Of a stretch of DNA of 64,000 nt, positions 7,390 to 55,350 are shown piece by piece. The translations under genes and the position numbers were made by a program. Source of the DNA: Chrysomallon squamiferum (Eukaryota > Animalia > Mollusca); the NCBI GenBank assembly GCA_012295275.1, contig CM022669.1, positions 14,942,001-15,006,000 on the forward strand, read 5' to 3'. Position 1 is the first letter of the stretch, and every line of letters begins with the position of its first letter. Below the pieces are notes generated by a model that saw only the letters and a program-made list of their open reading frames with translations, had not been told where the DNA came from and did not search any database.

Positions 7390-7850
7390 CAGCTACTGGA
7401 TACTGTGAGCTACATTCTTATTCATAAACCTGTTACTGGATATTACAAAAAACTTTATACTGCAAGCTATATTCTTATTCATAAACTTTCTACTGGACAT
7501 TACAAAAAACATTATTTTGCACTGGATCATACAATATAGACTCTTATTCATAAGCCTTCTCCTATTTATTAAAACAAAATCTCATTATTCTGTTACTGGA
7601 TATTAATAAATCTCATTATTCTGTTACTGGATATTGCAAGCAAAAGTCTTATTCATAAACCTTCTACTGCATATTAAAAGAAATCATTATTCTGTTACTG
7701 GATATTAACAAATCTCATTATTCTGTTACTCGATATTAACAAAACTCATTATTCTGTTAGTGGATATTACCAATGAAAAATCAGTGTTCTATTACTGTCT
7801 GTTACAAAAAAAATAAATAAATCACTTGTCTGTTACTGGAGACTGCAAGC
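7390..7850. repeat. Minisatellite (unit about 35 bp, TTATTCTGTTACTGGATATT...) homologous to the stop-codon region of the ROCO gene
   Basis: The core tgttactggatatt(g/a)ca recurs many times; the last unit is the actual coding end tgttactggagactgcaagc (7831-7850). Confidence 0.75.
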
Positions 7851-54200: not shown

Positions 54201-55350
54201 AATCCCTGAAAGTAAAGAGATAGGAAAGATCGAAAGATTTATGAGTCATACCAGTAAAGATGGAATGGGAAGAAATTCTAATTCAGCATCTGACACAGCT
54301 TGTAGCAGCTCACGTCTTGACAGAGTGACTGGTAAATAATCAAAAGACATTTTTTTTATAATATTAAAATTAAAACTAACAGTCTCATATAAAGCAAATA
54401 ATTCTCTAAAAACAAACAATACATACATTTTTCAAAGAATTCATGTAAATAAAATGTAATACATATACAAATACTCACACAGACACATAATAAACTTCAA
54501 ATATAAAAAAATATGAAAACAAATATAAGACACAAGCATACAAATATTTCTTAAGATATTATTCAATAACCGTTGAGTAGCAATAACCTATATTTCAGAA
54601 TCAATAACAGAAACATTTATTTACACTTTATTTGCGTACTAGCTTTAAAACTCTTTGTTCTGATAAAGGTGACTGTTAAAAAAATTACTCACTTGGATCA
54701 AATGATCCTCGTCGTTGCTTCTTTAACTTGCGTTTGGCTGCAAGGAGATCTTCTGGCAAAATAATCGAAATTTTTCCAGCCAACTCATGACTGCCATATT
54801 CCTCCTCAGGTTCCTGTTCCGTCGCTTTCTTTTGAGTCTGTTCAGTGTTTTTATCAGCACTGATCTTTTCATTCGGTACCTTCGGTTTTTCTTTTGATGC
54901 TGCTTCCTTCACTTCAGCAGACTCTGCTTCCAAATTCTGGGATACTGGCTTTGATGGGCCAGCTTCATCCTTCTGCTCTGCTTTCTCTATGCCTGTTTCA
55001 GATTTCAGTTCCGCCTTGTCAGGAGGATGAATGTTAATATTAATGCTGTTTGTTACAAGTTGCTCAACAGATTCTTTGGAACTGGACTCTTTAAGTTTTT
55101 TGGCTTTGTGTGGAACCTTGATTTTAGATGCAGCAGGCGTGTTACCAGAATATGGTCTTGATACAACAAATGGTCTTGAATGTCGGTCTGGTGCTTCCAA
55201 GACCGAGGAAGGTCTTGATAATATTTGTGAAGATGAGAGAACTTTGATGAAAGATAAAGATTTTTCGTCAGATGATGAACCTAATCTTTCAGAAGATGAA
55301 GGTTTTAAGTCAAATTTCTTTTTCAGCTCTGCAGTTGATGGTCTGGACAT
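7833..55350 (-). CDS. Giant kinase-less tandem ROCO/TIR protein (LRR-pseudoRoc-COR-...-TIR-TIR-...-LRR/EF-hand-Roc-COR-TIR-TIR-CaaX), about 3,358 aa, 66 coding exons
   Basis: Hand-threaded exons 5'->3', all GT-AG with matching phases: 55350-54693, 54328-54252, 53485-53344, 52448-52387, 52137-52014, 51366-51277, 50688-50486, 49803-49681, 49184-49042, 48480-48357, 48032-47778, 46673-46461, 46064-45909, 45170-45067, 44473-44358, 43474-43320, 42590-42389, 41666-41558, 41261-41183, 40763-40528, 39743-39602, 38785-38645, 37951-37777, 37495-37409, 37187-37068, 36570-36460, 35594-35382, 34319-34161, 33446-33333, 32971-32762, 32305-32262, 31795-31696, 30530-30420, 29897-29722, 29208-29149, 28643-28524, 28341-28291, 28129-27413, 26657-26525, 26008-25814, 25166-25001, 24619-24552, 24212-24112, 23412-23266, 22473-22384, 21927-21821, 21228-21150, 20499-20353, 19780-19616, 19159-19061, 18620-18526, 17953-17806, 17456-17339, 16567-16475, 15947-15839, 15409-15181, 14639-14473, 13964-13862, 13656-13474, 12918-12736, 12205-12061, 11544-11447, 10697-10521, 10131-10028, 9451-9258, 8044-7833. 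No internal stop. A few boundaries (39602, 28341, 11544) are less certain. Confidence 0.85.
11825..11887. repeat. (GA)n microsatellite
   Basis: Perfect GA run. Confidence 0.9.
12736..15947 (-). CDS. ROCO gene: C-terminal TIR pair (TIR3, TIR4; TIR_2-like)
   Basis: TIR3: DIFISYCQKD...DLQAAKYKCW...ALMDASVVLVLISDAFVQDEDCCNLFKYA. TIR4: CFISYSWKN...DPRKIKAFLEEKGIKCWIDIE...DIAEGLLNAKVVVACVSDEYAMSSSCTREFRYA. Confidence 0.9.
16475..25166 (-). CDS. ROCO gene: canonical Roc GTPase plus COR domain
   Basis: P-loop KLMLVGLGGAGKTSL, switch I ITDGIDI, WDFAGQSVYYNTHQFFLS, G4-like VVGSHVD, ISSHTGQGI. COR: AVQFLHELGSLQHF...VNPQWIVDVM, LVPCLLPE, YLPAGLFNR, LIWKRG, LPCPDC. Confidence 0.95.
18190..18320 (-). mobile_element. 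Possible decayed SINE-like fragment (similar bits at about 2266-2292 and about 36030-36120)
   Basis: The reverse complement of 18190-18212 (aaaaacattccttattgctaac) resembles 2268-2289 (aaaagaccccttgctgctgac). 36030-36120 has a tRNA-head-like tagcccaatgattaaa...aagatcaaatctcg. Weak, recall-based resemblance to gastropod SINEs. Confidence 0.3.
21330..21815. repeat. Degenerate intronic minisatellite (TTACCTTTATTAGACAAAGAAGTAGTGAATAT-like)
   Basis: Recurring ttagacaaag / aagtagtgaatat blocks filling the intron next to the donor at 21821. Confidence 0.75.
22995..23250. repeat. (AAT)n/(GAT)n compound microsatellite
   Basis: Directly visible. Confidence 0.9.
25001..28129 (-). CDS. ROCO gene: second LRR array with inserted EF-hand
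   Basis: Typical LxxLxLxxNxLxxLP repeats (IRSLQLQGNKLVSLP, LMDLDISMNEIEKLP, LTKLYLGGNCFTSLP) in the 717-nt exon. These are followed by FCHFDEDANGTLDAQEM (EF-hand loop 26595-26630), further LRRs, and the cap LELESCPLLKTPPKEI. Confidence 0.92.
26815..27050. repeat. Minisatellite, unit about 40 bp (TTACTCAAAATAACACTTACATTCTGATTCAGTTAGG)
   Basis: About 6 copies visible. Confidence 0.85.
29900..30320. repeat. (GATA)n/(AAAT)n/(AAGT)n compound microsatellite
   Basis: Directly visible. Confidence 0.9.
32762..37187 (-). CDS. ROCO gene: internal TIR pair (TIR1, TIR2)
   Basis: TIR1: AVLMSYSKDNEEKMLKIWSRLNRAGHTV...ARVILVGLSKSFENDTVCEREADLCMKFKKHVVPLKLEENYIPSG. TIR2: YVVISFNKSDQKMALRIRNHLKSSGYEVWMD...EAMDHSSVILICLSQKYSENEENNKEADYAAQLTKFMIPIIVEPGYYPDDWLG. 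Confidence 0.88.
33720..34150. repeat. Degenerate tandem repeat, unit about 95-105 bp (CCTCTTGTTATATAATGGTTATTAAAA...)
   Basis: About 5 copies of ctcttgt(t/c)atataatggt. Confidence 0.75.
34305..35360. repeat. 64-65 bp tandem repeat containing the splice acceptor and first about 14 nt of exon 34319
   Basis: tacaacataattgttaaatg units start at 34321, 34385, 34450, 34515, 34580, 34644, 34709..., decaying toward 35360. Confidence 0.93.
36765..36990. repeat. Degenerate minisatellite, unit about 40 bp (TATGGAATTGTGAATGGACATGGA)
   Basis: Recurring atggaattgtgaat. Confidence 0.6.
42389..53485 (-). CDS. ROCO gene: first module (Cys-containing LRRs, degenerate Roc, COR)
   Basis: LRR: LKKLICIGCVHLTDQGV, VEFQGCSQLTEKSLYYLAKNCPNL. 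Roc-like: KKLVVLTHADLTVSVGSLL...LNILEFPADS. COR-like: ELMDKCGKVFYF, FWPDD..FYSVLPSIPQSFFPILI, LLWKSGF, IPCFTC. Confidence 0.75.
44515..44740. repeat. Tandem duplication, unit about 95-100 bp, 2-3 copies
   Basis: gttttcatcagtca...atag(t/a)gtgtatcttcaga...tgataaaataaca..tgtcagttg repeated. Confidence 0.7.
47470..47830. repeat. Degenerate repeats (unit about 100 bp) containing the 3' end and donor site of exon 48032-47778
   Basis: tacttacacacttgtccatgagttcaacca (real junction) is echoed at about 47676, 47575 and 47474. Confidence 0.75.
48785..48935. repeat. Minisatellite, unit about 24 bp (TTTTCATTTTTGAAATTCTACAC)
   Basis: About 6 copies visible. Confidence 0.85.

Follow-up and report, generated by a model that had tools for sequence, protein, structure and literature searches.

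Two proteins of about 3,000 aa from Trichoplax, with the domain order LRR-EF-Roc-COR-TIR-TIR, have been filed as class ecTIR-DC 14 II (Kamm 2019, PMC6321704, citing Gerdol 2017), and one of them carries an N-terminal 'P-loop NTPase' label that goes unexplained there. In Aplysia, LOC101845043, with an EF-hand, and LOC101848126, with MBT, have been described as 'ROCO-TLRs' (PMC9334734), and Ras-like domains were noted ahead of Roc in three other Trichoplax ROCOs (Civiero 2014). Here we describe a related gene from the mollusc Chrysomallon squamiferum, located in a 64,000-nucleotide (nt) stretch of AT-rich animal DNA (GC about 28%; GenBank assembly GCA_012295275.1, contig CM022669.1, positions 14,942,001 to 15,006,000), which is referred to as the window. 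The gene was modelled on the minus strand as 66 coding exons, from an ATG at 55350 to a TAA at 7833. All 65 introns are GT-AG, and the coding sequence of 10,179 nt encodes a protein of 3,392 aa with a single, terminal stop. A first-pass annotation made from the letters alone had reported 66 exons in one frame between the same two codons, which the rebuilt model reproduced, and a protein of about 3,360 aa, which is slightly short.

Like the ecTIR-DC 14 II proteins, as given in the text of Fig. S1 of PMC6321704, the window protein is about 3,000 aa long and has the order LRR-EF-hand-LRR-Roc-COR-TIR-TIR. The class is drawn with one Roc-COR, whereas the window protein has two, plus two extra TIRs. 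A pseudo-Roc-COR, a SPRY-like domain, a pair of one dead and one live TIR and a CaaX box are all absent from the ecTIR-DC 14 II and Aplysia descriptions covered, and no account of a double or pseudo Roc-COR turned up in literature searches, with Gerdol 2017 and the bioRxiv supplements outside their coverage; the brown-algal ROCO and Mytilisepta papers yielded nothing further. The homologues retrieved include Aplysia LOC101848126 (P0175) and a Trichoplax protein (P0202). Uncharacterised invertebrate homologues, which the first-pass annotation had thought possible, do exist, but the family had already been named; it is catalogued with one Roc-COR, and the second, degenerate one is undescribed in the literature found. 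The protein is a variant of this catalogued family that hides a pseudo-ROCO module and bears a TIR cassette specific to its lineage; its function is considered below. Both modules share the LRR-Roc-COR fold of LRRK1, LRRK2 and the Chlorobium tepidum and Methanosarcina Rocos (8e05, 8fo9, 6hlu, 3dpu, 4wnr), the first by prediction and the second by sequence. Compared with LRRK1 and LRRK2, the window protein is without kinase or WD40 and has a TIR output, a second, degenerate module and a prenylation motif.

Homologue searches gave 82 usable relatives, which tblastn distributed over the minus strand between 54 kb and 9 kb. An alignment of 36 N-terminal halves displayed FBXL (F-box-protein)-type LRRs, strands and helices in the order of a small GTPase and motifs recognisable as those of COR, with the COR-A/B-like region at aa 605-978. 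When the profile of this N-module was compared with the C-terminal Roc-COR using hhalign, the two aligned over 405 collinear columns with a probability of 97.5% (E 6e-12, 13% identity), and unrelated controls gave 1% or less. By sub-domain the probabilities were 54% for Roc, 66% for COR-A and 96% for COR-B. A 10-sequence N-module profile run against 1.8 billion proteins retrieved 261 at E <=0.001, among them MFHAS1-like proteins and canonical kinase ROCOs, the canonical ones at E values of about 1e-10 to 1e-15. Against PDB sequences an N-module profile gave weak matches (nine at E <=10, including the LRRK2 Roc at 0.24-0.87 and Di-Ras). Pfam did not detect Roc1 in the orthologues and window exons scanned, and matched COR1 weakly in a few relatives. 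One or more pieces of the N-module were identified in 67 of 83 proteins, a count that is partly circular as the hidden Markov models (HMMs) were built from 36 of these same sequences; all 16 proteins without one are 2,166 aa or shorter.

The N-terminal half of the Haliotis orthologue was modelled with AlphaFold2 (AF2) from 40 sequences, with a mean predicted local confidence (pLDDT) of 85.9 and a predicted TM-score (pTM) of 0.88. In a Foldseek search with this model LRRK1, CtRoco (the Chlorobium Roco) and LRRK2 ranked first; all 33 of the matches listed, down to rank 36, were ROCO proteins, with E values from 8e-19 to 5e-5. The model superimposed on LRRK2 with a Z of 21.5 and a root-mean-square deviation (rmsd) of 4.1 over 469 aligned residues. 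Its LRR matched those of FBXL2 and FBXL17 (Z 15.3-15.7) and its G-domain matched Arf/Arl, and ESM Atlas features of a limpet fragment pointed to COR-A clusters. That the N-terminal half has a Roc-COR fold is supported by profile, predicted fold and database search, and structure prediction, which the first-pass annotation had suggested as a check on this claim, did recover the fold.

Judged from the alignment, the first Roc is a pseudo-GTPase in which G1 and G3 have been lost across the family. In the window protein THADLTVSV stands at the P-loop position and EFPAD at that of G3. The pattern GxxxxGK[ST] occurred in one of 49 N-module starts, where it lay after the P-loop position, a few of these segments beginning only after strand 1. 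Identity between the window protein and 11 relatives was 11-37% in Roc1 and 15-41% in COR1, compared with 65-80% in Roc2 and 52-79% in COR2; by this measure the first module evolves fast, its fold retained while its sequence drifts. Roc1 also carries a helical hairpin of about 60 residues that is absent from Roc2 and resembles the insert of MFHAS1. The MFHAS1-like ROCOs, an amphioxus cluster around P0234, are likewise without kinase, have a similarly long spacer from Roc to COR and gave the longest unbroken outside match of the N-module profile (positions 63-516, E 3e-11), but unlike the N-module protein they keep the P-loop, have typical LRRs and a single module, and lack TIR. The sea-anemone 'Novel Gene 1' (PMC5094078), with an FBXL-like LRR, Roc, weak COR and TIR_2, has, judging by its published description, the order and the LRR class of the N-module with a TIR added; it differs in its single module and detectable GTPase, and is a possible free-standing relative. 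No free-standing N-module with an intact P-loop was seen among the 13 of 143 new representatives inspected for motifs. The prokaryotic AP-GTPase/COR counter-invader proteins likewise join a repeat sensor, a Roc-COR switch and a swappable effector, but have a single module and no membrane anchor (Kaur 2021, PMC8195603).

The C-terminal module is the better conserved. Pfam found Roc followed by COR-A and COR-B in the orthologues, and family HMMs placed them in the window protein, of which Pfam was run on 15 exons rather than on the spliced whole. Both G1 and G3 are intact in 80 of 83 C-modules, and the EF-hand loop pattern is retained in most relatives. TIR active sites are composite. The Glu of helix alpha-C, read from the alignment column, is present in TIR1, TIR2 and TIR4 and absent from TIR3. 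At the catalytic column TIR4 has Glu in 75 of 75 sequences, which is best explained by catalysis if the alignment is a guide; TIR3 has it in none of 75, and has L, M or I in 68. A Cxxx ending was found in 68 of the 82 relatives. When the X of a CaaX box is Q, farnesyl is preferred. None of 14 family members scanned whole matched a kinase family, and the model has no unassigned stretch after COR. The EF-hand (a single one, with its loop at aa 2118), the prenylation motif, here CSLQ, and the lack of a kinase were all listed in the first-pass annotation and all stood, and the conserved catalytic Glu of one TIR agrees with its reading as well. Since COR leads directly into TIR3 and the family, of about 3,000 aa, is described as without transmembrane segment (PMC6321704), the TLR label of the Aplysia members would seem to fit poorly.

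The middle of the protein contains a second pair of TIRs. TIR1 and TIR2 are 20% identical to each other and 18-20% identical to TIR3 and TIR4. Three exons, all of them phase-1, encode each, with an intron falling at the codon for the catalytic Glu, and their introns differ from those of TIR3 and TIR4. The phase-1 triplets and shared intron positions suggest a shuffled cassette duplicated in place, and the exon structure points to the middle pair having been acquired separately. The two middle TIRs were found in no other of the 82 relatives; TIR2 is 54% identical over 91 columns to P0130 of Gigantopelta, whose truncated model begins inside TIR2. Four TIRs had been claimed and all four were located, but this layout is confined to the lineage and one of the four, TIR3, is without the catalytic Glu. 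Ahead of the cassette, an AF2 model of the Pomacea orthologue matched the SPRY structure 2yyo best (Z 14.4, rmsd 2.8, 136 aligned residues). The small beta-barrel that follows is probably a degenerate MBT/SH3-like domain; MBT is present in paralogues, and the match in a chiton relative (P0206) was weak, at an E of 8e-4, below cut-off. The Cys/His-rich segment likely binds zinc, to judge from its residues. The linker encoded by exons 31-37 gave no match in fold searches, the results of which were filled by the SPRY domain.

Coordinates of all features are given in the table below.

Features of the Chrysomallon squamiferum ROCO gene (positions in the window; COR-A1, COR-B1 and COR-A2, COR-B2, first and second COR; UTR, untranslated region)
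Feature	Positions	Strand	Basis
Whole gene, 66 coding exons, 3,392 aa	7833..55350	-	gene model; RNA joint and RNA contig size
Exon 1: ATG and low-complexity, poorly conserved N-terminal 219 aa	54693..55350	-	gene model; found in 4 RNA runs of one study
LRR1, FBXL-type Cys-containing LRRs, aa 217-379, exons 2-6	51277..54328	-	alignment; orthologue model
Pseudo-Roc, aa 393-610, G1/G3 lost, helical hairpin after strand 5, and start of COR-A; exons 7-11	47778..50688	-	alignment, hhalign, AF2
Rest of COR-A1 and COR-B1 (to aa 978), CxxC motif; exons 12-17	42389..46673	-	hhalign COR-B1 vs COR-B2, probability 96%
Cys/His-rich segment, exons 18-19	41183..41666	-	sequence
SPRY-like beta-sandwich, about aa 1055-1220, exons 20-22	38645..40763	-	AF2 of Pomacea orthologue
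Small beta-barrel, exons 23-24	37409..37951	-	secondary structure
TIR1, aa 1309-1443, Glu at catalytic position (about aa 1383), exons 25-27, all phase-1	35382..37187	-	alignment; exon 24-25 RNA splice
TIR2, aa 1481-1607, Glu at catalytic position (about aa 1545), exons 28-30	32762..34319	-	Pfam TIR_2 on exon 28, E 2.4e-6
Conserved alpha/beta and helical linker (aa 1620-1870), exons 31-37	28524..32305	-	homology, secondary structure
LRR2 (typical ROCO/SHOC2 type), interrupted by EF-hand, and start of Roc2; exons 38-41	25001..28129	-	homology
Single canonical 12-residue EF-hand loop, aa 2118-2129, exon 39	26525..26657	-	Pfam EF-hand_6
Intact Roc GTPase (Roc2), aa 2255-2425, G1 GLGGAGKTS, G3 WDFAGQ, exons 41-46	21821..25166	-	alignment, family HMMs
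COR-A2 and COR-B2, aa 2426-2734, exons 46-54	16475..21927	-	Pfam on orthologues; family HMMs
TIR3, aa 2756-2902, Leu replacing catalytic Glu (pseudo-TIR), exons 55-57	14473..15947	-	alignment
TIR4, aa 2907-3057, catalytic Glu (about aa 2995), exons 57-60	12736..14639	-	alignment; Pfam TIR_2 on exon 59
Conserved C-terminal domain, no Pfam family, exons 61-65	9258..12205	-	homology
CaaX box CSLQ and stop	7833..7847	-	gene model
Implied 3' UTR, at least 456 nt; ATTAAA at 7352	7377..7832	-	inferred by arithmetic on RNA contig size

The closest named protein is Gigantopelta aegis XP_041374603, 68% identical over aa 1522-3392; in a quick tree of Roc2-COR2 only, this species was the sister (SH-aLRT 99), with 85% identity over Roc-COR. 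From the distribution among relatives, the double Roc-COR is old and family-wide while the four-TIR layout is lineage-specific. As far as their composition tells, the two halves are not simple duplicates of each other: their LRRs are of different classes, Roc1 has its insert and the TIR cassette is separate. A BLAST self-comparison of the window protein gave no hit between the halves, and three of the 11 module-1 introns fell within one residue of a module-2 intron, one of them in the same phase. The parallel layout put forward in the first-pass annotation held for the second Roc-COR fold, but the modules are not equivalent, the first Roc having no P-loop and the first COR being separated from TIR1-TIR2 by about 330 aa of other domains. 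In relatives the middle region carries PLAT (abalone) or C2 (oyster), and there are paralogues with MBT or SPRY. One paralogous subfamily (P0179, P0182, P0184, P0187, P0191 and related proteins) has SPRY inserted inside the pseudo-Roc. Another has MBT repeats, and in a Mytilus member the same site holds a long coiled-coil insert. In amphioxus P0156-P0158 and P0173, a Glu-less TIR, 30% identical to the window TIR2, lies inside COR-B1.

The exon boundaries were set by hand, guided by homology, and not automatically. An iterated automatic model gave 66 exons on its first pass, was then over-fitted to 80 and was discarded. The less certain boundaries, all in poorly conserved parts, are the exon 21 donor, the exon 32 acceptor and the exon 65-66 join. 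The splice of exon 24 to exon 25, which skips a 221-nt intron, was present in the RNA contigs of runs X1 and X4, two of the three RNA runs compared, from one study; run X5, of unclassified type, behaved like DNA at these exons. The X1 contig is 8,186 nt long and exon 25 ends at its base 1,587. The 6,599 nt beyond correspond to 6,143 nt of modelled coding sequence and a further 456 nt that would be UTR, which puts the end 25 nt ahead of an ATTAAA. No 31-mer, a repeat of which could break the contig, occurs twice in the modelled mRNA. Arithmetic on this contig, together with the one joint directly observed, implies a single transcript from COR-B1 to the 3' UTR. Continuous orthologues of 2,800-3,300 aa are annotated in limpet, abalone, other snails, bivalves, the nemertean Lineus, amphioxus (Branchiostoma) and the hemichordate Ptychodera. 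The single gene claimed at first pass is thus borne out by its open frame, the exon 24-25 splice, the contig size and these orthologues.

Several repeats and variants were noted within the gene. Imperfect tandem repeats of 31, 57 and 102 bp occupy the 3' UTR region (7400-7770). A 65-bp tandem array fills 34306-35197 in intron 27, and as its last copy overlaps the 5' edge of exon 28, part of the exon 28 start may derive from the repeat unit. Within intron 11 (47400-47800) the 3' end of exon 11 recurs as two degenerate copies, whose donor-like sites at 47593 and 47490 are possible alternative donors by their sequence. A homologue search with exon 11 gave seven candidates, none at E <=1, and did not recover the Gigantopelta N-half. 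At 37147 in exon 25 the contigs of runs X2 and X5 show a T/C difference, probably an allele. Upstream, at 61079-63857 on the minus strand, are the 3' exons of a glycosyl hydrolase family 116 gene (GBA2-like glucosylceramidase), the last of which matches PF04685 at an E of 4e-15. On the plus strand, convergent with the ROCO gene, exons at about 1430-3950 resemble what we take to be 6-pyruvoyl-tetrahydropterin synthase; the 25-aa piece scanned had no Pfam match.

By analogy with known systems, namely the opening of the Chlorobium Roco upon GTP (10.1101/2023.11.13.566844), the dimerisation of ROCO proteins via COR (PMC4104024) and the Glu-dependent production of cyclic ADP-ribose (cADPR) by non-TLR animal TIRs, including mollusc and lancelet ones (10.64898/2026.04.20.719644), the protein is best read as a prenylated TIR enzyme gated by GTP. 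We put at roughly 55% the probability that it is a membrane-anchored enzyme of this kind, one that cleaves NAD+ to ADP-ribose or cADPR when signalling in innate immunity or stress and in which the degenerate module serves to regulate or to sense. The CSLQ terminus would be farnesylated, holding the C-terminus, and hence TIR3-TIR4, at the membrane. Roc2 would bind and hydrolyse GTP, switching between closed and open forms as in the Chlorobium Roco. The pseudo-Roc-COR, presumably unable to bind nucleotide normally, would restrain the active module or sense for it, either as a built-in COR partner or as bait, a role it would share with the FBXL-type LRR and the SPRY-like domain. On release the TIRs would gather, TIR4 giving the Glu and the Glu-less TIR3 the partner surface of a composite site. 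In this lineage the inserted TIR1-TIR2 cassette would add two more potentially catalytic or seeding TIRs, and Ca2+ might be linked to the switch through the EF-hand inside LRR2. Control by Ca2+ and the intramolecular pseudo-dimer, both proposed in the first-pass annotation, we infer rather than observe.

A number of points weigh against this assignment. The structures were predicted on orthologues of the window protein. One junction was directly observed, the remainder being taken from RNA contig size and homology; run X2 gave a shallow unspliced contig at the exon 24-25 site, and the gene is annotated as split in Patella vulgata, Gigantopelta, a chiton, a scallop and an ark clam. The EF-hand is single and its EF-hand_6 match (E 5e-4) is below the curated Pfam cut-off. 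Roc/COR is among the architecture labels of the cADPR figure of 10.64898/2026.04.20.719644, but a conserved Glu need not mean activity: the TIRs of TLR2, IL-1R9 and IL-1R10 have the Glu yet are inactive. The immune role is putative, and a low-copy family with a slowly evolving C-half would also fit a housekeeping membrane role.

The first alternative is that COR1 and COR2 pair within one chain as a permanent pseudo-dimer which controls the TIRs. Family-wide retention of the COR-A and COR-B folds in the N-module, the known COR-mediated dimers (PMC4104024) and the roughly 1,300 residues between the modules, enough for folding back, are consistent with it. An obligate interface should not be so asymmetric, however, with identity among relatives of 15-41% in COR-B1 and 58-75% in COR-B2, nor readily accommodate a TIR inside COR-B1, as in amphioxus, or the large Roc1 inserts of the SPRY paralogues, and we regard the arrangement as possible but rather doubtful. 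That the protein is a non-enzymatic scaffold, its TIRs acting as MyD88- or SARM-like adaptors and the GTPase only timing assembly, appears unlikely when TIR4 keeps its Glu in sequences from several phyla, even though TIR3 lacks it, binding modules (PLAT, C2, MBT, SPRY) swap in the middle slot and adaptor roles for ecTIR-DC proteins were proposed earlier (PMC6321704; PMC9334734). A trafficking or Ca2+-signalling protein like LRRK2 or MFHAS1, for example a local source of cADPR on endomembranes with no dedicated pathogen sensing, would explain the CaaX box, the EF-hand, the lipid-binding inserts of abalone (PLAT) and oyster (C2), the low copy number and the conserved C-half, and cADPR is tied to calcium signalling; but the combination of TIR, SPRY and LRR and the fast-evolving N-half are typical of immune proteins (Kaur 2021, PMC8195603), and we consider this reading improbable. 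Two adjacent genes, or an over-joined model, would suit the split annotations of some relatives and exons 25-28, which are without full-length orthologue support, but are very hard to reconcile with the RNA joint into TIR1, the size of the RNA contig, the unbroken orthologues and the N-only database proteins examined, which end inside shared domains and in three of four cases extend into the linker or LRR2.

About 1,000 'empty' residues, invisible to Pfam, are re-annotated in a family spread across marine invertebrates, and the extra TIR cassette is a clear example of exon shuffling in phase 1 within the Gigantopelta lineage. For LRRK2, the way in which Roc-COR dimerisation and nucleotide state govern ROCO output has yet to be settled. 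Here a live Roc-COR stands beside a presumably nucleotide-blind one, with an easily assayed TIR readout, and questions of the LRRK2 type become directly testable. A wider view, which we offer tentatively and think probably too strong, is that these proteins are old metazoan ROCO immune receptors paired in one chain and lost from vertebrates, in which the pseudo-Roc-COR would be dimer partner or bait and the dead TIR would complete the site of the live one. Each would be a self-contained, prenylated, GTP- and Ca2+-gated cADPR/NADase switch with a plug-in slot, filled by TIR-TIR here and by PLAT, C2, MBT or SPRY elsewhere. If that were true, the N-terminal module would contain the first pseudo-Roc, and the protein would offer a natural asymmetric Roc-COR pair for studies of LRRK2-type switches.

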